IMG/VR virus record: IMGVR_UViG_3300030328_000938
Coordinates: 1 to 60,294 of that record
Strand: one strand, 5' to 3'
From: a virus
Lineage: Duplodnaviria > Caudoviricetes
DNA length: 60,294 bases
The position numbers and the translations under genes are program-made. This document shows, piece by piece, positions 1,578 to 58,864 of the stretch; the stretch's first letter is position 1; every line of letters begins with the position of its first letter. The notes beneath the pieces are model-generated. The model worked only from the letters and a program-made list of their open reading frames with translations, had not been told where the DNA came from and ran no database searches.

Positions 1578-1601
1578 GTTTTACTCCTTCGCACAGGTCT
1601 A

Positions 1602-1630
1602 AATTTAACAATATCAATAGATAAAGACAA
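1602..1630 (-). promoter_or_regulatory. Sigma70-like promoter upstream of the exonuclease/recombination genes
   Basis: Minus strand reads TTGTCT-N17-TAAATT with an extended -10 TG. Confidence 0.55.
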
Positions 1631-1675
1631 GAAGGAAGGACAATGGAGCTACTCAAAACCTCCCTTCTGTCTTAT
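1621..1675 (-). terminator. Long imperfect hairpin (terminator or processing stem)
   Basis: ATAAGACAGAAGG pairs with CCTTCTTGTCTTTAT, just downstream of the HTH gene. Confidence 0.5.
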
Positions 1676-1694
1676 GGCGTACTCCTAAAGGCTA

Positions 1695-1907
1695 TCAGGG
1701 TACAAGTCTATATTCTGCGTATTTCTTCTTACCAGTGCTGTTCTTATTAATAATTGTGTAGCCTTCATCTCTTAATTCAAAGATGATAGCCGCGAGTCTC
1801 ATACTTCTTATGTCTGGATTCTGCATAGCGTCAAGTGGAGTCAATGATTGTCCTGTCTTTAAATAGTCTAAGACATTATCTTTTTTACTCTTCTTCTTTC
1901 TTACCAT
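1695..1907 (-). CDS. Winged helix-turn-helix protein
   Basis: LTPLDA...RLAAIIFELRDEGYTI pattern. Confidence 0.75.
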   Translation of the reverse strand: MVRKKKSKKDNVLDYLKTGQSLTPLDAMQNPDIRSMRLAAIIFELRDEGYTIINKNSTGKKKYAEYRLVP

Positions 1908-2458
1908 ACCTGAAATCCTCCTGAAGACTCAACAAACAATCTCCATCTCTTAGCTACATCAGTTTTAAATGGATAACTAGCCATAAAGTTTCTAGTTTTA
2001 CCTGTTCCCTTACAAGGGTTACAAGATTTCTTATCACTATTATGTATTCCAGTTCCATTGCAACCAACACACTCTTCATCTTCAAGTTTGTCTTGCCATT
2101 CTTTATAGCTCTTCTCGTACTTCTCTAAAGTTCCATCTTCCTCTGCCTTCCTTAGTAGTCTCGCCATTCTTATTGCAGTAGTCTTAGGCACTTTAATACC
2201 ATCATTAGACATACCTGCATCAATGTGTTTATCTGACATTACATTAAGACACACATCGACTGTATAAGACCACAATCCTCTCCACCACCAGACATTACTT
2301 CTCCAATAGTCTCCGGGGACTGCTTCCTCATACGCTGACACTCTTGCCCAATGGTCTTCTTGCTCATGTTTCTTGAGCTTATTGAAGTTATCAGGATAGA
2401 GTGGTTTCTCGATACCTAAGTGATTGATTGGACTTAATCCATACACATCATATCCCAT
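1901..2458 (-). CDS. Hypothetical phage protein with a DnaJ-type zinc finger insert
   Basis: CVGCNGTG...CNPCKGTG; Trp-rich YWRSNVWWWRGLW; AGGAGG RBS. Confidence 0.7.
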   Translation of the reverse strand: MGYDVYGLSPINHLGIEKPLYPDNFNKLKKHEQEDHWARVSAYEEAVPGDYWRSNVWWWRGLWSYTVDVCLNVMSDKHIDAGMSNDGIKVPKTTAIRMARLLRKAEEDGTLEKYEKSYKEWQDKLEDEECVGCNGTGIHNSDKKSCNPCKGTGKTRNFMASYPFKTDVAKRWRLFVESSGGFQVW

Positions 2459-2493
2459 AGTATCCTCCTTATCTTGCTTGTTATAGGAAATTT

Positions 2494-2577
2494 AGAGGCA
2501 ACTACAATCTTCGGTGACTCCCATCGTGTTAGCCACATTACTGCGCAGTTGGGAACGAACTTGTTATCATTGCCTCT
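2494..2577 (-). ncRNA. Candidate small multibranch structured RNA
   Basis: Closing stem AGAGGCAA(2494-2501)/TTGCCTCT(2570-2577); inner TCCCA/TGGGA, TTCG/CGAA and ACTGCGCAGT hairpin; intergenic. Confidence 0.55.
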
Positions 2578-2586
2578 TTAAAGTTT

Positions 2587-2712
2587 TGGGGGAACTGGTT
2601 CGCCAACCATATACATTTGTCATCCTCTTCTCTTTTGTTCCAAGTATTCTCAGCTAATGCTTCATTGTCTACTCTTTACTCAAGTCAAACTTTGACTAAT
2701 TCTGTCCCCCCA
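2587..2712 (-). ncRNA. Candidate structured RNA (~126 nt)
   Basis: Closing TGGGGG/CCCCCA; inner hairpins at 2596-2609 and 2683-2697; intergenic; strand inferred from context. Confidence 0.45.
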
Positions 2713-2724
2713 TTTACAGGAGTT

Positions 2725-3054
2725 TTAATCCAAGCCGTACTCTTGTTGTATACGACTAATGTGTTCACCTTCAAGGTATAGGTCATAGTTATAACCACAC
2801 ATTTGCTTTAATAAATCATAAGCATCTGTCAATTCATCACGATATTCTTCTTCCTTCATCATATCCATTGATGTATCATAATCAAACATTCCTTCGTGAA
2901 CATGGTAATTTTCATACCTATTTGGCTTATTTTGGGTATTCTTCATATCAAGAGTATCCTTAATAAGTCTAGGTATTGGTAGCTCTTTGCCATACTTCTT
3001 TTGATTGAAGTTTAGAGCTTTATAATAACTGTGTACTGGTTTGTTTTGTTTCAT
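2725..3054 (-). CDS. Hypothetical protein
   Basis: ORF with AGGAG RBS. Confidence 0.65.
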   Translation of the reverse strand: MKQNKPVHSYYKALNFNQKKYGKELPIPRLIKDTLDMKNTQNKPNRYENYHVHEGMFDYDTSMDMMKEEEYRDELTDAYDLLKQMCGYNYDLYLEGEHISRIQQEYGLD

Positions 3055-3083
3055 AACTGTCTCCTAAAGTTATTAGTATGTGT

Positions 3084-3668
3084 TTAACTTTCCAACTCTT
3101 TCATATTGCAATAGTCGTAATAACTACCTTTGTCTGTCCAAACATCCCAATATCCAACCCATCTAACTAGTTCAGGGAAGCGTACAAATCCGTACATATC
3201 AGGGTCTTCGTTCATCCAAGAGTTCTTGATATATTGTTTCAACTTCAATCCTGTATCAACAGGACTAACGCTATTAATATCTCCAACTTTTAGTAGTTTA
3301 TTTTGATTTCTGTCAATTCTAAGGTCAGCCTTCCAACCACAGTTTAATGTTATGTGTAGAGGTGTATCAGAGTTGTGCTGAAATTTATACTGTTTACCCA
3401 CAATACAATCTCTAGTCAAGTGTCCTTTAAGGTCTTTAGTGTTAATATAACAAGCATAAGCACTCATCTCTTCTAATGCAACCATTCCATAAATGAATAC
3501 TTCTTGCAATGGTTTACCTTCACCCCACTTATAACCTTCACCTATCTCAGGTGGTAATATAGGTTCTCTCTCCCCACTTCCTGCGTAATCATATGTCACA
3601 TGAAGTCCATTATGTGGGAAGAATATACCAGAGTATAATTGATTTAAATCTTTTCCATGTATATCCAT
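3084..3668 (-). CDS. Hypothetical protein
   Basis: 194-aa ORF, TAATG-coupled to the upstream peptide gene. Confidence 0.7.
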   Translation of the reverse strand: MDIHGKDLNQLYSGIFFPHNGLHVTYDYAGSGEREPILPPEIGEGYKWGEGKPLQEVFIYGMVALEEMSAYACYINTKDLKGHLTRDCIVGKQYKFQHNSDTPLHITLNCGWKADLRIDRNQNKLLKVGDINSVSPVDTGLKLKQYIKNSWMNEDPDMYGFVRFPELVRWVGYWDVWTDKGSYYDYCNMKELES

Positions 3669-3772
3669 TATTTCCTCGCCTCTTTCTTTCTCTTCTTCTC
3701 TTCACGCTTTCTTCTTTTAATGTCCTCGTTCTTCTTTCGTCTATTTATTTTATTTTGTTTAGCCTGTCTCAT
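3668..3772 (-). CDS. Very basic 34-aa peptide
   Basis: Hand translation MRQAKQNKINRRKKNEDIKRRKREEKKRKKEARK; AGGAG RBS; TAATG coupling to the next gene. Confidence 0.6.
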   Translation of the reverse strand: MRQAKQNKINRRKKNEDIKRRKREEKKRKKEARK

Positions 3773-3804
3773 TTGTCTCTCCTGTTAGTTAATGTTTAAA
3801 AGTA

Positions 3805-4238
3805 TGTGGTCACTCTTTCTCGCTTGATTAGAGTTGTCTATCACAGACTTCAATAGATTATGGATAGCGGTTTTGAACACATTATACCATAAGTACACCA
3901 AGATAACCATAATTCTGAGGAGCTACCTACTGATTAGAATGGCATCTTCTTGCCGATGCCCACAAGGTTCTTCAACCTCATGGTAAGATTCCGTCCTATG
4001 CCTTGCAACGCCTTAACACATTGCTAAGATGACATACGATGACCTGATAAGTCTTGAGTGCTTTCATACCTTTAGGGATAGCAGTAAGACCACTCTATGA
4101 TACTACATCATATCGTATTTGTATCGAAGTCTAGGATAACTTCATAGATACAGTCAAATGTACTCAACTAAGTTTAGTTTAGTTATTTAACGGTTTCCTC
4201 TATTGATGATTAGTCACTATCTACTCAAAGTGACCACA
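3805..4238 (-). ncRNA. Candidate large (~434 nt) structured non-coding RNA
   Basis: No ORF in the track; nested long-range helices 3805-3814/4229-4238, 3850-3857/4199-4206, 4034-4040/4112-4118 and many local hairpins; G-U extension of the closing helix favours the minus strand. Confidence 0.7.
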
Positions 4239-4248
4239 ATTAAAGTTT

Positions 4249-4315
4249 AGGCTCTGCATATCTATCACAAGAAGGATAAGATAGAAGGAACAGATGCGGA
4301 GTCCCTACAGAGCCT
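4249..4315 (-). ncRNA. Candidate small structured RNA with pyrimidine (UCCUUC) loops
   Basis: AGGCTCTG/CAGAGCCT closing stem; inner CTATC/GATAG. Confidence 0.55.
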
Positions 4316-4402
4316 TTAAGTCGCATTGCCAGTTTCTGTCTCCCGGTACTGGTAACCCATAGAGTATAATTTCTTTTAATTTTGGTAAATACTCATTTAA
4401 CC

Positions 4403-4507
4403 TCACCATATCTCTGGACTAGTGATTATAAGCCACCATATAAATGTAGCAAACATCATAAGTACACAAAGAAATTCACCTATAAATCTTTTGGTTGATT
4501 CTCGCAT
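4403..4507 (-). CDS. Small membrane peptide (34 aa)
   Basis: MRESTKRFIGEFLCVLMMFATFIWWLIITSPEIW; GAGG RBS. Confidence 0.5.
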   Translation of the reverse strand: MRESTKRFIGEFLCVLMMFATFIWWLIITSPEIW

Positions 4508-4564
4508 TTTCTTACCTCTAGGTTGTGACAAGTGGACATTTCTGCCCACCTGTCGTTGCAACAA

Positions 4565-4801
4565 CTACTCTGCCAAGAATGACTCTAGGATTAAACTCCC
4601 TTCATCATCTGTTATACAGAGCATAGCCTTTAGTTTATCGTAAGAGACATCTAGCATTTCAGATGCTTTACTACACGCTTTAGATGAATTAGATGCCTTA
4701 ACAAAGCCACCAAATCTCACCTTGCGTGAGGTATTCATTCCATGTTCACCATACAGTAATGATGTACTAGGAACTTCAACCAATATCATATACTTGTGCA
4801 T
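4565..4801 (-). CDS. Hypothetical early protein
   Basis: ORF; ATG at 4801 preceded by AGGAGG is preferred over the start at 4831. Confidence 0.6.
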   Translation of the reverse strand: MHKYMILVEVPSTSLLYGEHGMNTSRKVRFGGFVKASNSSKACSKASEMLDVSYDKLKAMLCITDDEGSLILESFLAE

Positions 4802-4928
4802 ACGATACCTCCTGTTCTGTTGTTGATTCATTCGTTATTTTACAACATACAAGAGTATTATAAGTTAATGCCCATGTTATCCCAATAGAACTATATATAA
4901 ATGGGAGTGAGTGAGCGTATATGTATCA

Positions 4929-4989
4929 TAATTGTACCACTTTATACAAATATACGACTTTATATAAATATATGTTAATTGTACTACTT
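4929..4989. repeat. Three degenerate direct repeats (TACNACTT) in an AT-rich spacer
   Basis: TAATTGTACCACTT 4929-4942, TATACGACTT 4951-4960, TAATTGTACTACTT 4976-4989. Confidence 0.55.
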
Positions 4990-5005
4990 AATTAATAAAT
5001 CAAGG

Positions 5006-5040
5006 TAGGAAAGTGGATACATTGCATACCCACTCTCCCC
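5006..5040 (-). terminator. Hairpin downstream of the first early gene
   Basis: GGAGAGTGGGTA/TATCCACTTTCC stem on the minus strand. Confidence 0.5.
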
Positions 5041-5069
5041 TGAAGACTCCTTAGTATCTTCAATAAACC

Positions 5070-5411
5070 TTACTTAGGATTGATTGCCTCTCGTACTGCC
5101 TCTGCAATGATTGGAGCCATTAGTGTAGCTGTTTCTGTAAGCATATCAGTCTGTGCCTGCTTCTGCTTCTTCATCGCTTTCTTTAGCTTCTTCTCACTCT
5201 TGCCTCTGCGTGCTGATGGATGCTCAGTTTCTGTTATTATAGATACAGCGTGTTCCATAGTTTCAAACATCTGTGAGTACGACCTATCTATACTTCTATC
5301 ACTAAGTGGAAACCTACGACTACGCTTCTGCCTCGCTGAGGTGTATGTAGCGTGTATGTCATCGATAACGAACTCTGCGTTCATCCACTTACCTAATCCG
5401 ACAAATTCCAT
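5070..5411 (-). CDS. Hypothetical protein, first gene of the early arm
   Basis: ORF with TAAGGAG RBS. Confidence 0.7.
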   Translation of the reverse strand: MEFVGLGKWMNAEFVIDDIHATYTSARQKRSRRFPLSDRSIDRSYSQMFETMEHAVSIITETEHPSARRGKSEKKLKKAMKKQKQAQTDMLTETATLMAPIIAEAVREAINPK

Positions 5412-5530
5412 GTTTATTCTCCTTATTAAGTTTACGATTCGATTACAACTAAAAAGTCATAATCAAAAAACCCAAAAAGACCGGGGTAGGGTGTGTATGT
5501 GGTTGCCTATCAAAATACTACAATTTTTTC

Positions 5531-15411: not shown

Positions 15412-18400
15412 ATGAGACTTTGGGAAAAAGTAAATAATGTAACTGGACATAAGTCTAAGTCTAGGTATCTTGTAGAATATATAAATGCAGGTGCAAAGTT
15501 TATTCTTAGTTCATTACCTGAAAAGTTTTTATGGACTGTGGCTAATGAGACAACTATAAATGGTTGGAACTCAAGTGATACTAATAATGATAATTTAGGT
15601 GCAGGTTCTAGTGTAGCCTATGATAAGATATTAGCAGTCTATAGATATGATAATGGGAAGAAAAGAGTGTGTGCAGAAGCACCTGATAATTCTATACACA
15701 TCTTTGATGAAGAAGGTAGTTTATTAACTGCAACTGAAATGTTCCCTAAGTTTTACAAGTTATCAGGAAAGATTTTTATAAAACCTGACCCTGACTATAA
15801 TGCTAGTAGTAGTAATAAGACTTATGTCCCTCTTGGTGGTACTTCTACTACATTAGCTAGTGGTGCAGGAGATAAAGGAATTGTTGTTTATTCTGCTCCT
15901 CCAGTAATTGACGAGAATACTGATAATTGGATATTGGTTGAGTATGAAAATATAGCATTAATGTACGCAGCGTCACTTGATTGCCTAAGACTTGTTACTC
16001 ATTATAGAGATTTATGTGAGTCAGAGATAGAAACAATCAATACTGCTACTACAGGTCTATTTGCTCAATTTAGAAATAAAGTACCTACTTTATCACTAAC
16101 TACAGATACTAATGGAAACAATATATCAATACCTATATTAGCATTAAATTGGAATCCAAGTGGTTCTTTACCTAGTTATAACTTTAATGAAACACTTCCA
16201 AGTTGGAATTTTAATGATAGTTTACCCTCTCCTTTGAGTGTGTCTACCAATTTACCAACTTTTGATAATAGTGCATTAACTGCTCCTAGTGCAATATCGG
16301 TATCAACGGCATTGCCTACTGCTATAAATCTATCAACATCATTACCTAATTGGTCTGGAATGGGAACTTTGGATACTGAAGTACCTGATTTTAGTGTAAG
16401 TACACCAGTACCAACTTTTGCATTTGCTAAAGAAGTTCCTGATAAAATTAATATAACTAAGGATTTACCCGGAGATTTTGAACTATCAAGACCTTTTCCA
16501 GTTCCAATTACTATTTCAGCTGATTTTCCTGCTGATATGGAAATAACTGTTGACTTTCCTGAGTTTTCTTTTACAGGAGTTCCACCTCAGCCAGTTACAA
16601 CATCAAAGCAATTACCTAATAGTATGTCTGCTGATATGACAACAGTACTTCCTACTTGGGATTTATCAACTGTTTTACCTAGTGAGGTGAATGTAACGGC
16701 TAGTTTACCTAGTGCATTTAACTTAACAAGTAATTTCCCTACTGATTTAGCAGTTGGTTCAAGACTTCCTAGTGATTTTAGCGTGAGTGCTACATTGCCT
16801 GAAGGGTTCAGTATTGATAGAACCTTACCTACATTTAGAGATGAGATATTTAATTTAGACCATTCTGAAGTAGATGAGGCTTTAGTAGAGGTAGACCAAA
16901 CATTAAAGACTGGTTTATTAGGTGCTAAGGATGATGCTGATTCAAGTAGTGGTGGACCAGAGAATACTTTTCCTAAGTCTCTAGCATATTGGCTAACTGA
17001 TGAAGACCCTGACATGGTTACTTCTACTACTCAAGCCGCGAACATTCAAATAAATAGAGCAAATGCTGAGATTCAGAAACAACAACAAAGATTAGATTCA
17101 TTCTCTAAGAAGATAAATACTGAGGTATCAAGGTTTAGTGGGTTAATTAATGCTTATAACGCAGATGCTCAGAATGAAAGAACAAGAGTTGAAACAGATG
17201 CTAACCTTTATAAAACATCAGTTGAGTCTGAAAGAACTAGAATTAATGCAGAAATAGAGAAATACAATGGTGATTTAAGTGCTGAGTCTAAGAGAATTGA
17301 TAGTCAGCTACAAAGATACTCTATGGAGTCTCAATCAGAGCAAACTAGGATTAATGCTGAATCGACTAAGTATCAATTAGAATTAGATAAAGAGAAAACA
17401 AGAATTAATACAGAATTAACAAGGCTTAAAACTGATGTTGAAAAAGAATCTACTAGGGTTACTACTGAGTTAGGTAAGTATCAGGCTGAAGTTCAGTTCT
17501 TAGGTACAAAATCTCAACAAGATATTGATATTTACTTAGGTGAATTAAATGGAGAGAGAACAAGAATAGAGGCTGAAACTACTAGATATACAAAAGAATT
17601 AGAGGCTGCGGTGGCAGTTAATAAGACAGAAGCTGAGAATTACTCTCTTGAGATACAAAAAGAGACTGCTCGTATTGAGAATGGTGTTAAAAGATACCAA
17701 ATAGAAATGGAAACTGAAGTATCTAGATACAGAGAAGAATTAAATGCATATAGCGCAGAGGTAAGTAAAGAAGCTGCGAGGTCTAATGTAGATGTTCAAG
17801 CGTATAATGCAGAGTTGCAAAAAGAAACTACTAGGATTAATGCAGATTTAAGTATATGGACTAATGAATTTCAAAAAGCAGTTCAAGAGTATCAGGCTAA
17901 ACTTCAAGGCTATCAAGCAGATGTAGCTCTCGAAACCACTACATTTAATTCAAATCTTGGTAAATGGAACGCAGATGTTGCATCAAGAGTTCAAGATTAT
18001 CAAATGGGTGTTACTAAATACTCTACTGAATTAGGTAAAGAGGGACAAAGACATCAATCTGAGACTGCTAAATATAATTTAGAACTTCAAAAAGAAATAA
18101 ATAGGATACAAAGTGATATAAATATCTTTCAAACAAATCTAAATAAGTTAGATGCTCAGTTTAAAAATGATTTAGCTAAGTATTCTACTGAGTTACAAAA
18201 AGATATTAATAGGGTAAATAGTGAAGTCGCTAAGTATAATGCATCTCTAGGTAAGTCAGCTCAAGAGTTTCAAGCCAATTTAAGTAAGTATACGAATGAA
18301 TTACAAAGAGAGGGTGCTAGATTTAACGGAGAAATAAGTAAGTACAATGCTCAAATTGGAGAAGAAGTCCAATCAATGAATAAAGATGTTGCTCAATTTA

Positions 18401-18669
18401 CTCAGGATATGGGTAAATACACTCAACTAGTACAAGCAAAGGCTTTAAAGTTTAACTCAGACCACGGTGAAGCAAAGACATATCTAGATGAAGCTACTAT
18501 GAGATTACAAACTAGTGGAAGTTATATGAATAAAAGTGGTTCTCTTTTTCAAGATTCTAGAGATTATTACCAAAGAGCAATGAATGAGTTAAGTGCAATA
18601 AGTGGAGCAATAACTGCACCAGCTCAGCAACAAAAAACACAAAGACAAGAACAAGGAGCTACTTCATAA
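15412..18669 (+). CDS. Virion structural protein with Pro-rich and 18-aa helical repeat arrays
   Basis: Follows the capsid gene; repeats visible in the translation. Confidence 0.7.
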   Translation: MRLWEKVNNVTGHKSKSRYLVEYINAGAKFILSSLPEKFLWTVANETTINGWNSSDTNNDNLGAGSSVAYDKILAVYRYDNGKKRVCAEAPDNSIHIFDEEGSLLTATEMFPKFYKLSGKIFIKPDPDYNASSSNKTYVPLGGTSTTLASGAGDKGIVVYSAPPVIDENTDNWILVEYENIALMYAASLDCLRLVTHYRDLCESEIETINTATTGLFAQFRNKVPTLSLTTDTNGNNISIPILALNWNPSGSLPSYNFNETLPSWNFNDSLPSPLSVSTNLPTFDNSALTAPSAISVSTALPTAINLSTSLPNWSGMGTLDTEVPDFSVSTPVPTFAFAKEVPDKINITKDLPGDFELSRPFPVPITISADFPADMEITVDFPEFSFTGVPPQPVTTSKQLPNSMSADMTTVLPTWDLSTVLPSEVNVTASLPSAFNLTSNFPTDLAVGSRLPSDFSVSATLPEGFSIDRTLPTFRDEIFNLDHSEVDEALVEVDQTLKTGLLGAKDDADSSSGGPENTFPKSLAYWLTDEDPDMVTSTTQAANIQINRANAEIQKQQQRLDSFSKKINTEVSRFSGLINAYNADAQNERTRVETDANLYKTSVESERTRINAEIEKYNGDLSAESKRIDSQLQRYSMESQSEQTRINAESTKYQLELDKEKTRINTELTRLKTDVEKESTRVTTELGKYQAEVQFLGTKSQQDIDIYLGELNGERTRIEAETTRYTKELEAAVAVNKTEAENYSLEIQKETARIENGVKRYQIEMETEVSRYREELNAYSAEVSKEAARSNVDVQAYNAELQKETTRINADLSIWTNEFQKAVQEYQAKLQGYQADVALETTTFNSNLGKWNADVASRVQDYQMGVTKYSTELGKEGQRHQSETAKYNLELQKEINRIQSDINIFQTNLNKLDAQFKNDLAKYSTELQKDINRVNSEVAKYNASLGKSAQEFQANLSKYTNELQREGARFNGEISKYNAQIGEEVQSMNKDVAQFTQDMGKYTQLVQAKALKFNSDHGEAKTYLDEATMRLQTSGSYMNKSGSLFQDSRDYYQRAMNELSAISGAITAPAQQQKTQRQEQGATS

Positions 18670-30028: not shown

Positions 30029-31173
30029 TGGCTAAAAAATCAGTAATAAATCCAGGAAAATTTCATTTAGGATATGCATTTGACTTCCCTCCTTATCAGA
30101 ATGAGGAGTATAATGAAGAACATGAAATAAAACAATTAAGATGGAAATCTTCTTGTGTTATGAATAGAAGAGCATATGTAGGCAATGTTAAGATTACAGA
30201 ATACGATGGAACTACTTACACTTTATCTGATTCTGTTTTTAAGTCTAGGACTAATAAGTTTGATTCATTTACCAAAACTAGAAGAATTGATGTAGCAGTT
30301 GGGGACGGAGAAGATATTATTGCATTAGCAGGTTTTGCTGATATGCTTCTTCAGTTTAAACAAACTACATTACACATTATTAATTGTGCAGGAGCATCTG
30401 AGTTCTTAGAAGGTACTTATAAATTTAAAGGAGTTGAACATCCAGCCTCTGTATGTAGTACTGACTTTGGGATTGCTTGGGCAAATAAACATGGAGTATT
30501 TTTCTTTGATGGAAGACAAGTTGAAGATTGCTTTATTAAAAGAGGCGTAAGAAGAATTAAGCCTTCTACATGGTCTACTTTCGCAGGTTCTGATATTTTA
30601 AGAGTTGGCTATCTCCCAGACGAAAGACTCATAATGGTTATCAATGATGATGGAGATACATTTATATATGATATGACTACTAAGTCTTTTACTCAAGGAA
30701 AAACACGAATTAGCGTACATGAAAAGACAAACTTAATTAATATATGGGATGGTACTCTAGTTCTAGGTTCAAATGATGGAACTGGTGATGAGGACTTAGA
30801 TGTTAAACCTATTGAGGCTGTTTCAAGTGCTACTGATAGTGGTAATTTTTATCTCTTAACAAGGCAAGTAGATGGGACATCTCCTACTCAAGAGAAGAAA
30901 TGGAAGAAAGTTTATGTAACATATAGAAACGCAGGTTCGGCTAAAGTAGAATTATCTTATAAAGGCATTAGTAAGAAGGATGGAGAAAGTGCTTTTATTC
31001 CTGTTACTGAGGCTTTTGAAAATAGTGGAAATTGGGAAACAACAGGATTTAAAATTGGTACAAATGCCTATACTATGCAAATTGAAATAAAGCCTAAGTC
31101 TGGTCAACAGATACCTTACAATTTTGAAATTAATGATATAACATTGGTCTATAGAGATAAGAGTGTAAAGTAA
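30028..31173 (+). CDS. Tail tubular/stabilisation (nozzle-like) protein, C-terminal part
   Basis: RAYVGNV, GIAWANKHGVFFFDG beta-propeller-like blades, KKWKKVYVTY, FEINDITLVYR. Confidence 0.7.
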   Translation: MAKKSVINPGKFHLGYAFDFPPYQNEEYNEEHEIKQLRWKSSCVMNRRAYVGNVKITEYDGTTYTLSDSVFKSRTNKFDSFTKTRRIDVAVGDGEDIIALAGFADMLLQFKQTTLHIINCAGASEFLEGTYKFKGVEHPASVCSTDFGIAWANKHGVFFFDGRQVEDCFIKRGVRRIKPSTWSTFAGSDILRVGYLPDERLIMVINDDGDTFIYDMTTKSFTQGKTRISVHEKTNLINIWDGTLVLGSNDGTGDEDLDVKPIEAVSSATDSGNFYLLTRQVDGTSPTQEKKWKKVYVTYRNAGSAKVELSYKGISKKDGESAFIPVTEAFENSGNWETTGFKIGTNAYTMQIEIKPKSGQQIPYNFEINDITLVYRDKSVK

Positions 31174-34100
31174 TGCCATTTGATAGACCTGATAGAAGAC
31201 TCAGGCAATTAAGTCAGCCTGTTACATTAACATACATTCCTTCTGATGATTACGGAAAGAATGGAGATAGAGTTTTCTTTAGAGATGAAGGCTCTAATAG
31301 TATTGAAGAATTATTCAAAAGAGATGGAAGATGGTACTCTGTTACAACTGGAAGACCAGCTAATGATTCAAAGAGAAGAGCAGGTAAAAAAGGAACTAGT
31401 GATGCAGTAGCAACAACTACTGTTCAGAATATTACTGTTAACCAAGATGGCTCAGGTGGAACTGGTACAGGTGGAGGTACTAGCGACCATTCCTTATTAG
31501 AGAACTTAAACCAAGATAATCATTCTCAGTATGTTCATAATACTAATGTAAGAACAGTTTCAGCCTCTCATGTATTTAGTGGCAATCCTTCTTTTACATC
31601 AAATCCCGTTTTTTCTAATACTCCTCAGTTTACTAAAGCAGATGGGAATACTCCATTTACTGTTACATCAACTACTAAGGTTGCTAACCTACATTCAGAT
31701 AATAGTGATAAATGGGATGGTTATCAATTTTCTGACTATTTAGACCAAGCAGTTAAAACAACTAGTGATGTTACTTTTGGTACTATTACTGCTACTGAAT
31801 TATCAGCTGTTCAAGGAGGTATTCACGAACACGATTCAGGAAATACTTACTCAACAGAATTAAGAATGACTCCTACTTCATTGAGTGCTAATAGAACTTT
31901 ATCGATATTGAATGGAGATGCTGATAGGACTATTACTGTTGATGGTAATTTAAATATTGAAAGTGCATCTATTATTAATCAAGATGTTACAACTGATTCT
32001 GATACAACATTTGGGAGTACTACATTAAGCAATCTTACTTCTACTAGACTTATAGCATCTGATGGTAGTAAAAAAGCAGTATCAACAAGTATATCAAGTT
32101 GGGTAGCAGGTACTACTAATCAAATAACGGTTACCGATGATACTGATGGTACAGCTACTTTATCGACTCCTCAAGATATACATACCTCAGCTACTCCTAC
32201 ATTTGCTAGTGCTACATTAGGAACTGTTAATGCAGGTGCTTCAGCGGGGACAGTAACTACTACTACTGGTGACTTGGTTCTTGACTCAGCATCTAATACT
32301 TTAAAGATAAATGCCGATTTAGATGTAGAATCTTCAGTAGATGTGGGTACAAACCTTAATGTTTTAGGCAATACGATATTAGGTGATACTACTGATTTTT
32401 CAGGTTCGGCTGATACTGTTGAGATGAAAGCCAATGTTACTATCAAAGGTGGCTTAACTGTTGATGGAACTACTACGACTATTAATAGTACTACTCTTTC
32501 AGTTGATGATAAGAATATTGAACTAGGAACTGTTGATTCTCCTAGCAATACAACGGCTGATGGTGGAGGAATAACTCTTAAGGGAGCTACTGATAAAACT
32601 ATTAATTGGATTAATTCAACAGGCTCTTGGACTTCTAATCAACCTTTTGAAGTAAGCAATCAATCAAGTCAGCTTAAATTAAGCTATGATAATTCCAATG
32701 CGAGTACTCTAGGAGTAGATAGTGGTGGAATACTCACAATAGGTGCAAGTGATATAAGATTTAATGCAAGTGGTCAAAATGTAGACCCTTCAGCTACCGT
32801 TCATACCGACTTAGGTGCATACAATAGAATGTGGAGAAGTCTATATGCTGCGGAACTTTATGTTGAAAATTTAGTTGCTCAAGATGTTATGGCTACTATG
32901 GGTGGTCGTATTATAGTTGCTCCTACTACAAAGCTAATAGCAAATGTAACTAATAATGCTACAACGATAGATGTTGAACACAATAATATAACTGGTGCAT
33001 ATATAAAACTACAAACTGCTCCTGCAGGTGTTGCTCAAATTGAAATTATGAAAGTAAATACTGGGAGTCCTACTACAATAACTGGTGGATTTAGATACAC
33101 AGTTACAAGAAATGCAGATGGCTCAGGTGCTAATAGTTGGGTAGAAGGAGATGCAGTTGTCAATTTTGGAGCTTCGAGTGGAGAAGGGTTTATAGATTTA
33201 ACATCTACTACTACATCATTAAATCATCTCGGTCCGAATATGACAATCTATTCAAGAAAAGATATGAACGCTTGGGATAGAATGGATGCCACGGTTTCAA
33301 TAGGTAACCTAGAAAGTTGGGTTGATTATAGTTCAGATGAGTTTGGAATTGCTATTGGTATGAATATGCTTAATTCTCCAAATGCTAACTCTGGTCCTTT
33401 TACAGGACTAACTGCTGATAGAACTAATGGTCTTAGACTATTTAATACTCCTATTGAGATGTATAGAGCAGGCGTAAAGAAAGTTAAGATTACTTCTTCT
33501 GGTGGTATAAAATTAGGTGACCAAATAGATGGTGGTAGTGAGGATGTAAAATTTGATTGGGATGAGGATAATGATAAATTAACCATATCAGGTATTATCC
33601 ATGTTCAAGATGGAAGTACTGGAATGGGAGACGATATAAGCGAAGGAACAACAATATCATCAGGGGGAGTTTATGTTAATAGTGGTACAGGAAAGTTTAC
33701 AATATCTAATACTTCAAATAGTATTAGTTATGGTGATGCTAGTGCTATATTTCTTGGACTTGATTCTGCTACTCCTAAACTATCTCTAAAGGGTGCAGGA
33801 ACAGAGGGATTAACTTGGGATGGAAGTAGTTTAAGTGTAACTGGAACAATCAATGTTCAGAATCCAGGTGACTTTGCAGGTGCATCTTTACAAGAGCAGT
33901 TTGGAGGTAGTTCATTAGATTTAACTACTTGGACAATTAATTACGGACTTGTTACTATTGCTAATCAATCTATGACTTTTAGTGGTACAACAGATGAACA
34001 ATGGAATGTAGTTAGTGGTGATTCAATTTTTAAAAGAGCGAATAGACCAGTTTTTGAATGGGATGTAGAAATAACAGGTGCGAATCCTAATTATGTACTT

Positions 34101-36314
34101 GGTCTTTGGAACGCTGATGTTAGTATTACATCTCATTATTATTCACACTATGGTGTTATTTTTAGAAAGTCTAGTGCAAGTAGTACTAAATATATAGAAG
34201 CTAGATGGGAACAGAATGGGGGTTATAGTACTCACCAAGATTTAGTTGGTTCATCTACTGCATGGGATATTGGTGATGTATTTAGATGTAGAATAAGTTT
34301 ACTTGCTACTGGTGGTTATTTAGAGATATTTAAAAATGGTAACTACACATCTCCTCTTTATACACATACTTATACTTATAATACATTTGAAAATATTAAA
34401 GTAATTATGAAAGCATATAAGCAATCTAACTATACTATTGATGGTATAAAATTTCTTGGAGTAACTGCTAATGGTCACTTACCAATGGGTACTCGTATTG
34501 ATGGTAATATGATTAGCACAGGTCAAATAGAAAGTAATAATTGGAGTTCAAGTGCAGGTTCTAGATTAAACTTAGATGATGGCTCTATGACTATGGGTGG
34601 CTCTAGCTCTCCTACTCTTAGTGTTCATGCTAATGGTGATGTAACTATGACAGGAACCGTTACTGCAAACGCAGGTTCTATTGCAGGGTGGACTATAGAC
34701 TCTGATAAGTTATTTAAAGATGGTATGTGGTTAGGTAAAACTGGTGCAAGTGGTCAAAATGCTACTGTTAGAGAATTAAGAGTAAGTTCAGATGAGACTG
34801 GAACTGGAAATTCTAATTTTGTTAGGATGTATATAGATTCTGGTACTGATGATACTTGGGGAATAGAAGGATACGCAGATGGTAATGAGCAATTTCATTT
34901 AGGTGAAATAACAGGAACTGCTACTAATCGTATAGCAGGTTGGACTTTTGATAATACTAATTTTTATAAAGTTCAAGATAGTAAATATATTGGATTAACA
35001 ACAAATGCTCATAGCGACATAGCAGATGAAAGTCAAACCCTATCTTCTGTTTTCGCAGGTGGTACTGGTTCCACAGGTGCAGGTTCTACAATATCTATAT
35101 CTTCAGATGGTAAATTTAGAGGGAATGGTATTTATAGAAGAGGTGGTAAAGATTGGACTATTGAATCTAGTAGACTATTTGGAGATGGTGCTGATGGTTC
35201 TTGGGTACTTAAGGCTGAAGATGGTCGTTATCAAGTTAAATCAGTAGGACATCCTCAACAAAGTCTAGATGCTTATAATGGCATTAATCAAAACTCTACA
35301 GATGCTTCAAATAATGGTACTGCGGGAGGTCTAGGTTCTTGGGAAGATGCTGATGATTGGGGACAGATATTTTATGATTCATCTCAGCAAGATGGATATA
35401 GGTATCAAATAAAATTATTAAGAGATGTTTATTTAGAAAAACTTGAATTTGAACAAGCTAGTAACGACTATCCCGTAATTCAAACTAATGGATATAGAAT
35501 GTTTGTTAGAGATAGAATACATATAGGAAGTGGTTTTTCTTCTAGTGAGTATGTAAGATTTAGAAATAGAGGGGAGGCAGGGACAGGAGGTTCATCAGGT
35601 TCTGTTGGATATTCAAATGATGATGGTTCTACTATAGCTGGTCCAAGTGGTACTACTGGTGGTGGAATCGGTGGAACAGGGGGAGCTGGTGGTACTTTAA
35701 GAGGAGGAAGAGATGGAAGAAATGGTGGTAATGGTGGCGCGGCAGGTGGAGTTTCTAGTCAAAATGGTACAAGTGGAACAACAGGCTCTGGTAGTTCGAG
35801 TGGACTTGGCTCATATAGTGTTACATTAGAAGGTAAGACTGGTGCGCAGGGAGGCAATGGAGGTACGGGTGGAGATATGTCAGGAGGTAATAATGGTGGT
35901 TCTTCAGGTCCAGCAGGTACTTCTTATAATGGTGGTACTGCTACTCAAGCAAAAACTAGAATACAACACGCTGACCCTCACTTATTAACAATGTTTAGAG
36001 ATGTATATAGTGAAGCAGATGATTCAGATAGAATATCTCCTTCAGCTGGTTCCTCTGGTGGAGGGGGAGGCGGTGGAGGCGGTGGTGCTTACTTCCAACA
36101 AGATACTGAAGCTATCACAGGAGGCTCAGGTGGAGAAGGAGGAGGAGCAGGAGGCTCAGGTGGAACTATATTAATATGTTGTAGGTTATTTACATCAGAT
36201 GGTGGAAAGTTTAATTTTGATGCTCGTGGTGGAGATGGTGGTAATGGTGGCGATGGTGGATATAGAGGTTATACTGATGATTTTGGTGGTGGTGGCTCAG
36301 GTGGACCTCCATAA
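31173..36314 (+). CDS. Long tail fibre protein with a Gly-rich C-terminal domain
   Basis: Fibre motifs (DNHSQY, GGLTVDGTTTTINST, GSIAGWTI); FGDGADG followed by poly-Gly region. Confidence 0.8.
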   Translation: MPFDRPDRRLRQLSQPVTLTYIPSDDYGKNGDRVFFRDEGSNSIEELFKRDGRWYSVTTGRPANDSKRRAGKKGTSDAVATTTVQNITVNQDGSGGTGTGGGTSDHSLLENLNQDNHSQYVHNTNVRTVSASHVFSGNPSFTSNPVFSNTPQFTKADGNTPFTVTSTTKVANLHSDNSDKWDGYQFSDYLDQAVKTTSDVTFGTITATELSAVQGGIHEHDSGNTYSTELRMTPTSLSANRTLSILNGDADRTITVDGNLNIESASIINQDVTTDSDTTFGSTTLSNLTSTRLIASDGSKKAVSTSISSWVAGTTNQITVTDDTDGTATLSTPQDIHTSATPTFASATLGTVNAGASAGTVTTTTGDLVLDSASNTLKINADLDVESSVDVGTNLNVLGNTILGDTTDFSGSADTVEMKANVTIKGGLTVDGTTTTINSTTLSVDDKNIELGTVDSPSNTTADGGGITLKGATDKTINWINSTGSWTSNQPFEVSNQSSQLKLSYDNSNASTLGVDSGGILTIGASDIRFNASGQNVDPSATVHTDLGAYNRMWRSLYAAELYVENLVAQDVMATMGGRIIVAPTTKLIANVTNNATTIDVEHNNITGAYIKLQTAPAGVAQIEIMKVNTGSPTTITGGFRYTVTRNADGSGANSWVEGDAVVNFGASSGEGFIDLTSTTTSLNHLGPNMTIYSRKDMNAWDRMDATVSIGNLESWVDYSSDEFGIAIGMNMLNSPNANSGPFTGLTADRTNGLRLFNTPIEMYRAGVKKVKITSSGGIKLGDQIDGGSEDVKFDWDEDNDKLTISGIIHVQDGSTGMGDDISEGTTISSGGVYVNSGTGKFTISNTSNSISYGDASAIFLGLDSATPKLSLKGAGTEGLTWDGSSLSVTGTINVQNPGDFAGASLQEQFGGSSLDLTTWTINYGLVTIANQSMTFSGTTDEQWNVVSGDSIFKRANRPVFEWDVEITGANPNYVLGLWNADVSITSHYYSHYGVIFRKSSASSTKYIEARWEQNGGYSTHQDLVGSSTAWDIGDVFRCRISLLATGGYLEIFKNGNYTSPLYTHTYTYNTFENIKVIMKAYKQSNYTIDGIKFLGVTANGHLPMGTRIDGNMISTGQIESNNWSSSAGSRLNLDDGSMTMGGSSSPTLSVHANGDVTMTGTVTANAGSIAGWTIDSDKLFKDGMWLGKTGASGQNATVRELRVSSDETGTGNSNFVRMYIDSGTDDTWGIEGYADGNEQFHLGEITGTATNRIAGWTFDNTNFYKVQDSKYIGLTTNAHSDIADESQTLSSVFAGGTGSTGAGSTISISSDGKFRGNGIYRRGGKDWTIESSRLFGDGADGSWVLKAEDGRYQVKSVGHPQQSLDAYNGINQNSTDASNNGTAGGLGSWEDADDWGQIFYDSSQQDGYRYQIKLLRDVYLEKLEFEQASNDYPVIQTNGYRMFVRDRIHIGSGFSSSEYVRFRNRGEAGTGGSSGSVGYSNDDGSTIAGPSGTTGGGIGGTGGAGGTLRGGRDGRNGGNGGAAGGVSSQNGTSGTTGSGSSSGLGSYSVTLEGKTGAQGGNGGTGGDMSGGNNGGSSGPAGTSYNGGTATQAKTRIQHADPHLLTMFRDVYSEADDSDRISPSAGSSGGGGGGGGGGAYFQQDTEAITGGSGGEGGGAGGSGGTILICCRLFTSDGGKFNFDARGGDGGNGGDGGYRGYTDDFGGGGSGGPP

Positions 36315-39859: not shown

Positions 39860-41620
39860 ATGGCTGCAGCACAAGTATTACAAGCACTTAATATGATTCT
39901 AGACGACAGGTCTAGGAGAGAACAAAGAGATGTTCAATCTTCATTGGGAGCTATGGAATTAGCATTGAAAGAAAAGAAGATGGAAGAAGATGCTATTCAT
40001 AGAAGGTTTAGTAGAAAGAAAGCATTAGTTGAAACCGAAGATGCATTGAAAACATCTAAGGCGAAAAGAGGTCAAATAGCTCAATCAATAAGAACAAGTA
40101 GAACTGTTGAAGAAAAGAACAGACAAGATATATTCTTAAAGGCTTGGGAGGGTATGAACGAATCATACGAAGAGTCTCAAATGATGTTAGCTAATCAGAT
40201 ATGGTCAGACTTTGGCTTTTCTGCACTATGGACATATATGGAAGTAGGTGAAGGTAAGCCAGTTACTGTTTCAAACATGACTAGACTTCGTACACATCTA
40301 GAAAAGAATGGAATGGATAAGGCATCTGCTCAGTTTATTACTAAGAAGGTTGCTCAAATTGGAGCGCAGGAAAAGAAACCTGCTTCAACTGTTATTGGTC
40401 TAGGTCGTTTTGTTAGGAATAGATTAGTTTCAATACAAAATTTAAAAGGCAATGAGAAGAATCAAAAATTAAAAGACTTTGTTGACGCTGGTTATAATGT
40501 TGGCATCTTTACAGACCCTTTCAATTCTGAGTATAGCAATAAGCAGGAAATGGTTGAAAAGAACATGGGATTGATGAATGATATAGGTAAGCTAAATAAG
40601 ATAGCAGTATTAGATGATATTAAAGCCAAGCTAACTCAAGAGAGATATGAAATGTCTTATCAAGATGATGATTCTTCTACAACATCAGATGAGGAACTTG
40701 GAATTAGATATGAGTTTCAGAATGATAATAGGAATAAAATTAATAATAGTCTTCGAGGCTTTGGTGAGCAATTAACTCAAGAAGAAAAAGACCAGAATAA
40801 AAAAGTATATACCAAAAGAGAAATAGAGGAGGCACAAAATAAGTATTGGTCACAAATTCGTGCAGGTTCACAATGGGTTGATAACTTTAGAAATCTGAAG
40901 TCAGAAGCTCAAGATGAATTAAGAGCAAGTGGTGACTTAGGATACGCCCAGTCAGTTGAAGGAGTACTTGGACCGACAGGTACAAACATAACTTCTCTAC
41001 CTAATCTTCAATTAACACTACCTACTAATATGGTAGGAAAGACTCCTAATGAGATAGAAAACTATTGGGAGAATATGAGAGGAGGCGTAGATGCAGAGTT
41101 GTTTAAAGTCCAAACTGCAATACAAAACCATAATGCTGAAACATCTGCTATTGCTACTAATCTTGCTAATATGAGACAATCAGGTATAAGTGTTACAAAT
41201 GCAGAAGAATTAACAAGGCAAGATGAAAAAAGAAATATTGATTTATATAGGCTTCAAGAACAACAAAGAGCATTAGAGAATTGGATGAGCAATCTAAATA
41301 AAACAATGTCTGCAATACCAGTAGATGAATCACATGGTTTGTCTTCATTGCCTTATAAAGATATTAATCAAGACCAAAAACAACAAAGATATGATGAACT
41401 CGCTCTTAGGCAAATGAATCCTATTGGTAATGTTTTAATGGATTGGTTCGGAGGGACATCTGAGGAACAAAGATTTGATAAGGTAAATACTTCTAACGAT
41501 GAGAAATATGTAGACCCTATGGGAGATGGTTTAGACCCTATTAAGAAGAAGAAAACTGATGATTTAAAGTTAAATACTATGAAATGGAATATGATATTTA
41601 GAGGTTTAGGAGGGTACTAA
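39860..41620 (+). CDS. Putative internal virion protein
   Basis: Helical 586 aa, coupled to the giant gene. Confidence 0.5.
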   Translation: MAAAQVLQALNMILDDRSRREQRDVQSSLGAMELALKEKKMEEDAIHRRFSRKKALVETEDALKTSKAKRGQIAQSIRTSRTVEEKNRQDIFLKAWEGMNESYEESQMMLANQIWSDFGFSALWTYMEVGEGKPVTVSNMTRLRTHLEKNGMDKASAQFITKKVAQIGAQEKKPASTVIGLGRFVRNRLVSIQNLKGNEKNQKLKDFVDAGYNVGIFTDPFNSEYSNKQEMVEKNMGLMNDIGKLNKIAVLDDIKAKLTQERYEMSYQDDDSSTTSDEELGIRYEFQNDNRNKINNSLRGFGEQLTQEEKDQNKKVYTKREIEEAQNKYWSQIRAGSQWVDNFRNLKSEAQDELRASGDLGYAQSVEGVLGPTGTNITSLPNLQLTLPTNMVGKTPNEIENYWENMRGGVDAELFKVQTAIQNHNAETSAIATNLANMRQSGISVTNAEELTRQDEKRNIDLYRLQEQQRALENWMSNLNKTMSAIPVDESHGLSSLPYKDINQDQKQQRYDELALRQMNPIGNVLMDWFGGTSEEQRFDKVNTSNDEKYVDPMGDGLDPIKKKKTDDLKLNTMKWNMIFRGLGGY

Positions 41621-44600
41621 TGGCTGAGAATATGTTATTCGGGAAAAGTCTAGAGCAATTCTTAGATGAAGAATTAAAAGGAATTAATACATCAACAGAG
41701 TATGCAGACCCTTCAGGGGGAGCATCAGGTATAGTAAGTGATAGTCAGTATCGAGGAAGAGGTGCTGTTCCTTCTCCTATGGTAACAGATAGAGAGCCTT
41801 TTATAGATACTAATAATTTATTTGCTCAATTACAACATGAACCTGAACATTTCCCAGCTCACCTAAGACCTGATTCAGATAAGTCTATGATGGCTCATTT
41901 AGGAAGAGGTATTGTATCAGCTTTAGACTCAGCTAGTATGAATGTTGGTAGATTATTTATCCCGGGTAAAGGCTCGGTTGCTGAAACCTTGCCTGATATG
42001 TTTGAGAGTGGAAAACTTGATTGGTTAAAGAGTGATAACTCTTGGCAAACTAAAGTATCTGACTCTCTTGGTGAAACTGTCGGTTTTCTAGGTTCATTTT
42101 CAATAGCAGGTGCGGCAGAGAAAGCAATTATAAAGAATATCCCTAGAGTAGGTTCTAAATCTATTGCAAAAAGCATAAAGAAAAAGGTTGCAGACCAACT
42201 TGAAAAAGGTGGACAGATAAAATGGATGTCCAATCAGGGTACTACGAAAGCAGAAAGAGAACTTTTAACCGAGGCTAGTGCAAAGTCTACATTTCAAAAG
42301 ATATATAAAGATGTATGGGATACACCTTTGTCTAATTATTCTCATGGATTTAGAAATGCATCTAAGCAAAACTCATTTAAACAAAAGGTTGAAGCAGGAT
42401 TTGCAGACGAATTTAATAAAGTATTAAATCAGAATGGTCTTGAGGCTTCAGATGACTTAGCTAAACTTGTAGGCGATGAATTTATGAGGTGGTATGGTAA
42501 GAATACTAAGCCTCCTGTAAGTGATATAGCTACTGCTATTCAAAGAATAATGGCTAAAGGTGGATTGCCCGGCTTGTCTAACCCAGCTTTTGGTGCGGCA
42601 GTAGGTGTAATTGGTCAAGAGGCTATTACATTCTCAATGGTTGAAATGTTAATGGAAGCAGTACAAGCGACAGATGAAGAAAGAGAAGCACATATAGGAG
42701 ATGTTGGTTTTCACGCGGCAGGTATGGGTATGTTACTTGGTGGTATAAGACTTATTCCGGGTGGTAAAACAAAGGCTAATACATTATTTCCTAATCCTTT
42801 TGGTGGCAAAGATGGTGGATTTTCTATGTTTAGAAAGCTAATCTTAGGAAGGAAACCATATAAAGGTAGAGTTGATTTCACAAAAAATTCAGAAAGAATG
42901 GCATTATTAAATGTTTGGGAGTATCTATCTAGTAGGAATCTAGGTACTGGTGCTTTAGGAAAGATAATGCAAGACTCTGCAAAGAGACATAAGCATCATT
43001 TAAATAAAGTTTTTGGAGGAAGAACAGGAAAGAACTCTACTAAAGTACATGATTATACTCTTAAAGAACTAGAAGCAGTTCTTAATCAATCTGGCTCTGG
43101 CATAAGAATGATTAATGGAAAGAAAGTAAATCAGAAAGAGGCTATAGCAGAGATAATGGCTGATGCATTAGATGATGTATATTCACAGTTTAGAGGAAGG
43201 TGGGTAAAAGATTTCTTTAGAGAGTACGCTACTGATTTTACAATGTCAACTCCTAGAATGTTATTAGGTTCTATGGCTATGGGAGGCGGTCCGAAGATGT
43301 TGGTAGACCCTGATATTCCTTTTGAAGACAAAGTACTTGGCTTTGGTCTTGGTGGCTTTATGATGAAGAGAGGTAAGTCCCTTAAGTATTACAATAAAAA
43401 GGGACAGGCAATGGAACATGAAGGATGGATAGGTGGAAAAAGAAAAGAATTTTATTCTAAGTCAAAATTAGGTGAATCTCATTTAAAAGAATTATCCTCA
43501 ACAATGAAACTTATGGGTGCTAATCCTAAAGAGCATTGGCATTGGGGAAATATGGCTGACAATTTAGATATAGACCCTCGTATGCCGTGGGTTTCTAGCT
43601 TTAAGGATACAGAGACTAGAGAGAGTAGTAAGGTTAGAGAAGAGTTTCTTAGAGAAGAAAATGGTAAGCGTGTCTACACAACAGAGAAAGAACCGGGAGA
43701 GAAGCAGATAAGAAAAGAAGGTAAGAATGACCCCGGTGACCATATTAAAAAATTATACAAGCACTTCGTTGTTTACTCAGGGAATAAGCACTTTCAACAT
43801 CATGTAGAAGGTAAAGAACAATTCGTAAAGGATTGGGAACATCTAACAAGTAAAGAGAAGAAGCAGTTTGAGAAAAATATGGAAGACGCTGGTATTAGGG
43901 AAGTAAATGACTTTCTTGATGTGATGATGGAAACTAAGATGGCAGGTCTTGACCAAACAGCTATAGAGGTTGCAAGTAATCTTCGTAATGCTGTTGAGCA
44001 ATTACAGAAAGTATTACCTGAGGGTAGTAAGCGTTTGATGAAAGTTATTGAGGGTGATAGATTAAAATTTGTAAGACTCGACTCTAGAAGAGATGGTGAC
44101 TCTAAATTAACTACAGACCAAGCTAATATGATTGAGAGATATAATTCTTATGTCGAGTTCTTAGTTAGGTCAGGTAAGGCTGAATTAATAAACAGAAGTC
44201 CTTCCGATATTGGAACTATCATAGATTCAAAAACTCCTGGCGTTAAAGAATTTATGACACAGATGGAAGCAACTCATATAGGATTCAATAAGGCATTTGG
44301 TGGTAGAGAAGGTGAAATTCTTCTAGAGCCAACAGATGGTGTTTTTATTGATTACCATAGATTTGCAATGATGCATAAGAATGTTAAAATGGGAAGTGCT
44401 TTTTTATCTTCAATCTTTGAATCAGGTTACAAAACAAAGCATCAATTTAATAAACAAGAATTACAAAAAGCTGGGGAGTTAATTCGAGAGATATTCCAAT
44501 CCGAAAAAGGATTTCCAATACAAAAAATTGAGGCAGGTAAAGGTCAGCAACTATTTGCTGAGACTATGCTTGAAGTTTTAAAGCCTTACTTGGCTACTCC

Positions 44601-58763: not shown

Positions 58764-58780
58764 ATCCTATTCCTTAAAGT

Positions 58781-58852: not shown

Positions 58853-58864
58853 CCCTAATTTAGT

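Follow-up and report, generated by a model that had tools for sequence, protein, structure and literature searches.

A large structured noncoding RNA, absent from RNA catalogues, in the early region of an uncultured marine phage

What is made, if anything, from positions 3805-4238 of the genome of an uncultured marine phage, a stretch bounded by complementary ends and filled with inverted repeats? The stretch lies in the virus record IMGVR_UViG_3300030328_000938, a complete IMG/VR record of 60,294 bp (the window; all positions are counted from its first base). The original prediction, made from the letters alone, had proposed a new large phage noncoding RNA, possibly a ribozyme, a scaffold or a protein decoy. 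The first part of this proposal is borne out: the absence of an Rfam match, the folding of the minus strand, covariation and contigs from RNA libraries all support an uncatalogued large structured phage noncoding RNA, which is a new family among the loosely defined large orphan phage RNAs. The conserved RNA structure is very probably real, and the RNA is probably transcribed, this being held with a little less confidence. The best explanation of the whole, a noncoding RNA that belongs to an accessory early unit and acts in trans as a scaffold or decoy, is given a probability of about 0.55.

The ends of the interval had been predicted to pair. Both TGTGGTCACT (3805-3814) and AGTGACCACA (4229-4238) are present, and their pairing, on the minus strand, reaches 12 bp, one of these being G-U. 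An arm of 10 nt is ordinary when taken alone, the window containing three matches to it at one mismatch or fewer, against 3.0 expected. The interval had also been described as free of open reading frames (ORFs), and no frame of at least 40 codons spans 3805-4238 under translation table 11, table 4 or with TAG read as Q; the longest frames reach 98 codons with four read-through TAG, and 72 codons with table 4. For the minus strand the folding energy is -122.9 kcal/mol, compared with a shuffle mean of -101.3 (z -4.56), and none of 100 shuffles is as good. The fold of the plus strand has a z-score of -1.74, with 5 of 100 shuffles as good. A mostly coding control interval (58368-58913) folds at z -3.3, and the z-score by itself is thus weak evidence.

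Two divergent contig variants pointed to an invariant core at about 4053-4099, and a 21-nt pattern taken from this core was scanned over metagenome contigs. Four loci were returned, three of which are true homologues, 77-87% identical to the window: L087 (76.7% over 584 nt), L088 (84.0% over 512 nt) and L089 (87.0% over 568 nt). The fourth, L086, has only 23 nt in common with the window and was rejected. Conservation of the RNA over more than 500 nt equals or exceeds that of the flanking genes; the flanking gene regions of L087 are 68% and 78% identical to those of the window. Indels of 1, 2, 5 and 6 nt separate the copies, the longest frame without a stop in any of the four has 68 codons, and the copies have no such frame in common. 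A recoded gene, or a gene written in an alternative genetic code, was rejected, no long frame being conserved across copies. L087 and L089 fold with z-scores of -4.78 and -3.22, respectively.

The structure can be judged by the changes that separate the four copies. RNAalifold predicts 125 pairs for the four sequences, 16 of them with compensatory change. A curated structure, made up of 120 pairs in 19 helices, was counted on the unfitted MAFFT alignment of the copies: 25 of the 120 pairs change on both sides, the shuffle mean being 10.5 (standard deviation 2.3), and none of 500 shuffles reaches 25. Controls in which partners were slid by 1-3 columns yield 1-4 double-sided changes. The unfitted count was relied upon because a helix search allowing shifts of up to 6 nt either way is too permissive, local shuffles matching the score of short helices in 15-100% of trials. 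The strongest cases are found in the helices called here Pa, Pe, Pd, Pf, P1, Pl and Pj. In 12 pairs G-U is the commonest pair type; read on the plus strand they would turn into A-C mismatches, and the fold is therefore assigned to the minus strand, on which all the RNA features described below lie. Matching double changes in Pb (4100/4108) and Pa (4126/4143) are carried by a variant DNA contig of run X5, which resembles L089 and may not be independent of it. The inner helices first read in the window, TCAATAGA/TCTATTGA, AGGTT/AACCT, ATACGAT/ATCGTAT, GAGTG/CACTC, TATGAT/ATCATA and GTATC-GAAGT/ACTTC-GATAC (plus-strand letters), are kept in the homologues, most of them with compensatory changes.

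Structure might also arise by chance in a decaying or hypervariable intergenic spacer. The surroundings are indeed hypervariable, the early module at about 1600-5440 giving only scattered short matches among 80 relatives with a 76-90% identical terminase; the mostly coding control folds at z -3.3, and one homologue, L088, folds poorly. Set against this are the 77-87% identity over more than 500 nt, matching or exceeding that of the flanking genes, and the 25 double-sided changes, compared with 1-4 in the slid controls. Of the explanations weighed, chance is the least probable.

Parts of a 901-nt stretch around the RNA occur in 20 runs, 12 of which are RNA libraries from the studies P2, P3 and P5. 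Contigs were examined in one RNA run per study (X2, X3 and X6) and in one DNA run, that is in 4 of 22 listed runs. Contigs showing no difference from the window cover 3806-4191 in X2, 3819-4170 in X3, and 3833-3983 together with 3960-4110 in X6. The word depth of the X3 contig is 185.7, two further contigs on this stretch having 3.4 and 59.8; contig depth is a poor measure of expression. No contigs were found on the flanks of the RNA in runs X2 and X6, which is evidence neither way.

Novelty had been claimed from the letters only, and the search of Rfam 15 agrees with it: no match reached the gathering score anywhere in the window, and no family was found for the RNA at E values up to 10. A mimic of a CRISPR repeat was rejected, the single match to CRISPR-DR18 in 3600-4700 scoring 18.8 bits against a gathering score of 50 (E 2.4). 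Searched against Rfam at E up to 10, the three homologues gave only one match, of 28.9 bits, to a small nucleolar RNA. The models of GOLLD, ROOL and OLE do not match the RNA, nor does any self-cleaving ribozyme family. Full-text searches of the literature brought up no description of the RNA, a text search being unable to find a sequence. Group I or group II introns were rejected too: Rfam gives no match, the ORF upstream is closed by a stop codon in all four copies, and the one downstream is provided with an AGGAG and a start codon of its own. No splice was seen: the one joint in the examined contigs belongs to a variant in which a 106-nt segment is replaced.

The core of the RNA (3805-4238, about 435 nt), supported by fold, covariation and RNA-library contigs, is closed by P1. 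The 5' strand of P1, UGUGGUCACUUU (4227-4238), pairs with the 3' strand, AGAGUGACCACA (3805-3816), at 12 of 12 positions in the window, L089 and L087, the last with an A-U to G-C double change; the helix is broken in L088 (7 of 12). Inside it, P2 (4199-4204 with 3852-3857) is paired in 100% of cells and has one U-A to U-G change, and P3 (4189-4198, GGA..CCGUU, with 3986-3995) in 97%, with one A-U to G-C double change in L087; the 3' strand of P3 lies inside the invariant AUAGGACGGAAUCU. The hairpin Pk (4166-4184, AACUAA/UUAGUU) is weakly supported, being 67% paired as aligned. L087 has a different hairpin there, in a shifted register, and the corresponding AACTAA/TTAGTT repeat noticed in the window is only partly kept in the homologues. 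Hairpin Pa (4120-4152) consists of outer and inner stems and the invariant loop UUAUCCUAGA. Six of its pairs change on both sides, and its outer stems, in the shift-tolerant fit, are of three kinds: UGUAUC/GAUACA, GAUGAG/UUCAUC and UGCACA/UGUGCG.

Helix Pe (4112-4118 with 4034-4040) encloses the hairpins Pb and Pc. Five of its pairs change on both sides; it reads UAUUAAU/AUUAAUA in L087, and is unformed in L088. Pb (4096-4112, UAUGAU/AUCAUA) is 100% paired, with one A-U to U-A change in L089. Pc (4056-4095, GAGUG/CACUC) is the best-conserved part of the core and the source of the search pattern; its helix never varies, and its 30-nt interior is nearly invariant. A candidate long-range pairing of 4083-4087 with 3923-3927 (UUACU/GGUAG; UGACU/GGUCA in L087) would explain the sole change inside this interior. 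In the scan for extra helices 10 of 15 hits fall outside the curated structure, over a high background.

Hairpin Pd (4005-4024, loop GWUAAGG) shows an A-U to U-A change in L087, and is replaced in L088 by a wholly different 7-bp stem, GUCUGAC/GUUGGAC, shifted by 2 nt. In hairpin Pf (3960-3983, CCAU..AGGUU/AACCU..GUGG) five of nine pairs show double-sided changes. Helix Ph, a long-range one (3955-3959 with 3895-3899), encloses Pi (3936-3940 with 3912-3916); in this region pair 380/440 reads UA, UG and CG, and the local hairpin 3941-3960 (GGCAUC/GAUGCC) is an alternative. The latter had been listed among the helices of the window as GGCATC/GATGCC; it is invariant in three copies, yet is deleted in L088 and competes with the long-range helix. 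One listed helix, ATTATGG (3857) with CCATAAT (3907), is probably mis-paired, the covariation in L087 favoring 3887-3892 with 3858-3863. This is helix Pl (3858-3892, UUAUGG/CCAUAA), which has a G-C to C-G change in L087 and contains the small hairpin Pm (3867-3880). Hairpin Pj (3836-3848, GUCU/AGAC) is 100% paired, with a G-C to C-G change in three homologues.

The interval at first proposed holds a structured unit, as said, but its limits were drawn too narrowly. The conserved unit reaches about 80 nt further in the 5' direction, its limits being about 4318 and about 3800. The added 5' domain (4245-4318) is a nearly invariant three-way junction (93% mean column identity) formed by helices H5a (4315-4307/4257-4249), H5b (4306-4301/4291-4286) and H5c (4285-4280/4266-4261); in L087, H5b is shorter by one base on either side. 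Among 91 sources, model R2 matched the 5' domain solely in the four copies. At the other end a run of four U (3798-3801) is found 3 bases past the 3' strand of P1, in the context UACUUUU in the window and L089 and UAUUUUU in L087; L088 has none. This run is possibly the 3' end of the RNA. The terminator scan did not flag the site.

Short motifs fared differently. CUAAUCA occurs three times in the window copy, as noticed at the outset, whereas the homologues have 2, 0 and 2 copies of it; not being conserved, it was rejected as a binding motif. UAUCC is found four times, and UUAUCCU twice, in each of the four copies, and two of the four conserved UAUCC motifs lie in apical loops that read UUAUCCU. 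The genome shows no excess of AGGATAA, the complement of the loop motif (14 matches, 16 expected).

The distribution of the RNA is narrow. No copy was found by blastn and nhmmer in 84 related viral loci (80 with a 76-90% identical large terminase, four with the 88-amino-acid upstream gene described below), where the sole matches were to a hairpin of 30 nt that lies outside the RNA and, over 42 nt, to the coding flank. Scans of viral contigs with two invariant stretches as patterns gave no match to either. The sole match to a looser two-block pattern, L090, is not recognised by model R1. Two pattern scans of a prokaryote genome collection returned nothing, and model R1 found no convincing copy in 10 fuller records of relatives; one 22.6-bit match in these was judged spurious, 74 of 176 model positions being absent. 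The RNA is an accessory element, patchy among relatives.

Patchiness and the perfect 10-bp terminal inverted repeat are what an element working as DNA would also show, either a miniature inverted-repeat mobile element or a replication or packaging site, and DNA and RNA contigs do break near 3801-3806 and 4241. The element is nonetheless single in the genome and missing from the prokaryote collection, covariation extends throughout the interior and is not confined to the ends, the 12 G-U pairs make the fold strand-specific, and the stretch is found in RNA libraries. An element of this sort is very improbable. A multi-copy mobile element in particular was rejected: inverted repeats are present, but there is a single copy in the window, none in the genome collection, and no flanking direct repeat.

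In all four copies the core is accompanied by the 5' domain and, 5' of it, by an ORF for a 34-amino-acid hydrophobic peptide (MRESTKRF...ITSPEIW; 4403-4507, minus strand). The N-terminus of the peptide is basic and its C-terminus, FIWWLIITSPEIW, is invariant; the peptide has one hydrophobic helix and matches nothing in Pfam or PHROG, and a scan with the back-translated peptide pattern returned no matches. Further upstream lies a putative sigma-70-like promoter, TTGGGA-17 nt-TATAAT (4857-4885, minus strand), which agrees with the consensus at 10 of 12 positions. By the alignment, read by eye, L087 and L089 have TTGGGA-17/18-TATAAT directly 5' of the peptide ORF. Downstream, the noncoding unit is limited by AGGAG (3779-3783) and the next ORF, of 34 amino acids and rich in Lys and Arg (3668-3772, minus strand), whose N-terminus is conserved in L089 and L087.

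With this arrangement the RNA could be a cis-acting element of the early operon, the 3' untranslated region of the peptide mRNA and/or a leader of the downstream genes, which would stabilize the message, insulate or terminate transcription through P1 and the U-run, or couple translation to folding. The peptide ORF always precedes the RNA, and in three of the four copies its stop codon is separated from the 5' domain, and its outer helix H5a, by about 10 nt or less; the RNA lies between the promoter-like site and the next ribosome-binding site, and P1 is followed by the U-run in three of four copies. On the other hand, about 500 nt and at least a dozen conserved helices far exceed the needs of known leaders and terminators, an insertion of about 84 nt that separates ORF and RNA (4319-4402, minus strand) is tolerated in the window copy, the sole one to have it, the gene downstream differs in L088, and the site is not flagged as a terminator. 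The cis-acting role is accordingly held unlikely.

The insertion that separates the peptide stop from the RNA carries, at 4361-4383, a 23-nt promoter-like repeat with the core AATTATACTCT, also present at 3630-3652, at the start of a 194-amino-acid gene, and in L007; possibly the repeat is a promoter of the phage, or else a motif for recombination. A second difference from L087 and L089 is seen at 4527-4856, between promoter and peptide ORF, where the window has an extra gene of 88 amino acids (4565-4831) and a GAAA-loop hairpin of 26-30 nt (4527-4556). The hairpin is single in the window; it is 100% identical in L003 and 93% in L002, though the protein is only 54-67% identical. Gene and hairpin may be a small mobile gene cassette, or the hairpin a conserved processing or recognition site. 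L004, which shares the 88-amino-acid gene and has no copy of the RNA, has a tRNA-Met (positions 4531-4605 of L004) in the slot equivalent to that of the RNA in the window.

The mRNAs of hok-type type I toxins combine a small hydrophobic peptide gene with a highly folded RNA, the ends of which pair over a long range. The locus resembles them in joining a small hydrophobic peptide ORF to a folded RNA with a long-range closing helix, and it might be read as a toxin-antitoxin module in which the peptide, always linked, basic at its N-terminus and forming a hydrophobic helix, would be the toxin, and the structured RNA its control. Unlike in hok, the closing helix does not enclose the ORF or its ribosome-binding site; both are 80-165 nt upstream of it, P1 having even its 5' strand (4238-4227) downstream of the ORF (4507-4403), so that control of translation by a hok-style fold-back cannot work. 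The RNA is also longer, no antisense gene or antisense RNA was identified, and the peptide has no family match. In two of three comparisons the RNA is more conserved than the peptide region. A hok-like module is hence judged improbable, if marginally less so than a DNA-level element.

A comparison is invited by the large RNAs ROOL and GOLLD which, in a recent account (Kretsch et al. 2025, PMC12286853), are described as phage or prophage RNAs of unknown function forming nanocages, with symmetric kissing loops made by palindromic tetranucleotides; both are often found beside tRNA islands, many GOLLD members exceed 800 nt, and the best-conserved part of GOLLD is its 3' region. The RNA described here is like ROOL in being a large multi-helix phage RNA of unknown function which looks independent of protein, and unlike it in lacking a nearby tRNA island, in being marine and not from rumen or Firmicutes, and in its link to a small peptide ORF. 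It shares with GOLLD an ornate phage or prophage structure, the occurrence in marine metagenomes and a conserved domain beside a more variable one; it differs in length (about 440-520 nt), in having no adjoining tRNA genes, and in that its 5' domain is the most conserved. The RNA is phage-borne, as are GOLLD and ROOL, the window encoding terminase, portal, DnaB and a Cas4-like nuclease; the other trait of these RNAs, the tRNA island, is missing, with no tRNA gene in the window or in L087-L089.

The RNA might then be an RNA-only machine, a homo-oligomer in the manner of ROOL, GOLLD or OLE, or a new ribozyme. It is large, ornate and phage-borne, no protein is linked to it in all copies, and the palindrome CUAG is part of the invariant loop at the tip of Pa; the nanocages and palindromic kissing loops described for ROOL and GOLLD (PMC12286853) speak for the same reading. 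Arguing against this are the lack of similarity to the GOLLD, ROOL and OLE models, the invariance of the loop palindrome, which leaves no covariation signal, and the lack of a match to self-cleaving ribozyme families. This alternative appears doubtful, more so than the cis-acting one. Its fuller version, in which a widespread marine phage would make a multimeric particle or a ribozyme early in infection, with the 5' junction and the UUAUCCU and CUAG loops as active or contact sites, seems only a shade less doubtful.

The working model favored here is that of RNAs such as CsrB/RsmZ and 6S, which act as protein-sequestering sponges. The likeness lies in the noncoding nature of the RNA, its presence in RNA libraries and its repeated short motifs exposed in loops; unlike those sponges, it has only four UAUCC and no GGA-rich repeats, its architecture goes beyond a string of hairpins, and it has no Rfam match. 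The accessory early unit would comprise the sigma-70-like promoter, the ORF for the 34-amino-acid membrane peptide, the RNA, and P1 with the U-run. Transcribed from the early promoter together with the peptide ORF, the RNA would end near P1 and the U-run and persist as a stable species; its invariant loops, including the UAUCC motifs, may bind one or more host or phage proteins in trans, and the RNA could so take part in host take-over or counter-defense early in infection. A protein-binding scaffold or decoy is favored because of the location among hypervariable early genes, the independence from any one neighboring protein gene, and the conserved exposed motifs. Taken alone, this trans-acting role is tentative and stands somewhat below even odds.

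Several observations weigh against the scaffold or decoy reading, or against the structure on which it is built. Motif repetition as a whole does not stand out: 17 repeated 7-mers occur against a shuffle mean of 12.5, and 17% of 300 shuffles reach that number. Only four copies are known, at 77-87% identity, so that the covariation represents few independent events, and most of the double-sided changes come from L087 and L089. The share of cells paired in the curated 120-pair structure, 92.3%, is inflated, the structure having been derived in part from the window sequence. Three elements are missing from the copy in L088 (positions 1273-1710 of that locus), which is 84% identical overall: the GAUGCC segment, Pe and the 3' strand of P1. 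Its folding does not stand out from that of shuffled sequence (z -1.66, 8 of 100 as good), and a different gene lies downstream, the basic ORF not being linked there. Either this copy has decayed, or it is a variant built on another plan. The RNA-library contigs tell neither strand, ends nor level. Their ends (3806, 3819 and 3833; 4191, 4170 and 4110) vary by run and coincide with variable sites, so that the contigs leave the transcript ends undefined and do not show a discrete transcript. None of the three RNA runs has contigs on 4210-4318, which includes the 5' domain; by the rule of the tool this is evidence neither way.

The genome in which the RNA resides has terminase small and large subunits, portal and very large structural ORFs on the plus strand (5809-53345), and DnaB helicase, a Dam-type methyltransferase and the Cas4-like nuclease on the minus strand, at both flanks of the window. 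This minus-strand gene content locates the RNA in the replication or early module, about 1.6 kb from the divergent point. The closest terminase in the phage collection is about 25% identical, and no cultured phage is near; blastn and megablast of the window DNA against the phage GenBank collection gave no match. No relatives of the neighboring 194-amino-acid gene were found in IMG/VR. ARAGORN found neither tRNA nor transfer-messenger RNA genes in the window. ORFs of 3009 (41620-50649), 1713 (31173-36314) and 1085 amino acids (15412-18669) have no Pfam match at E up to 0.001.

Large intricate bacterial or phage RNAs of unknown function are, to our knowledge, few: GOLLD, ROOL, OLE, HEARO, raiA and a handful more, and each has opened a new question in RNA biology. 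The RNA described here comes from an uncultured marine phage lineage without cultured relative, and is found in ocean RNA libraries of three studies. More divergent variants are present in public runs, which makes a covariation model and structure determination feasible. If the RNA is a stable trans-acting species, it would be a candidate RNA-based factor of host take-over or counter-defense in the sea, or a new self-assembling RNA.

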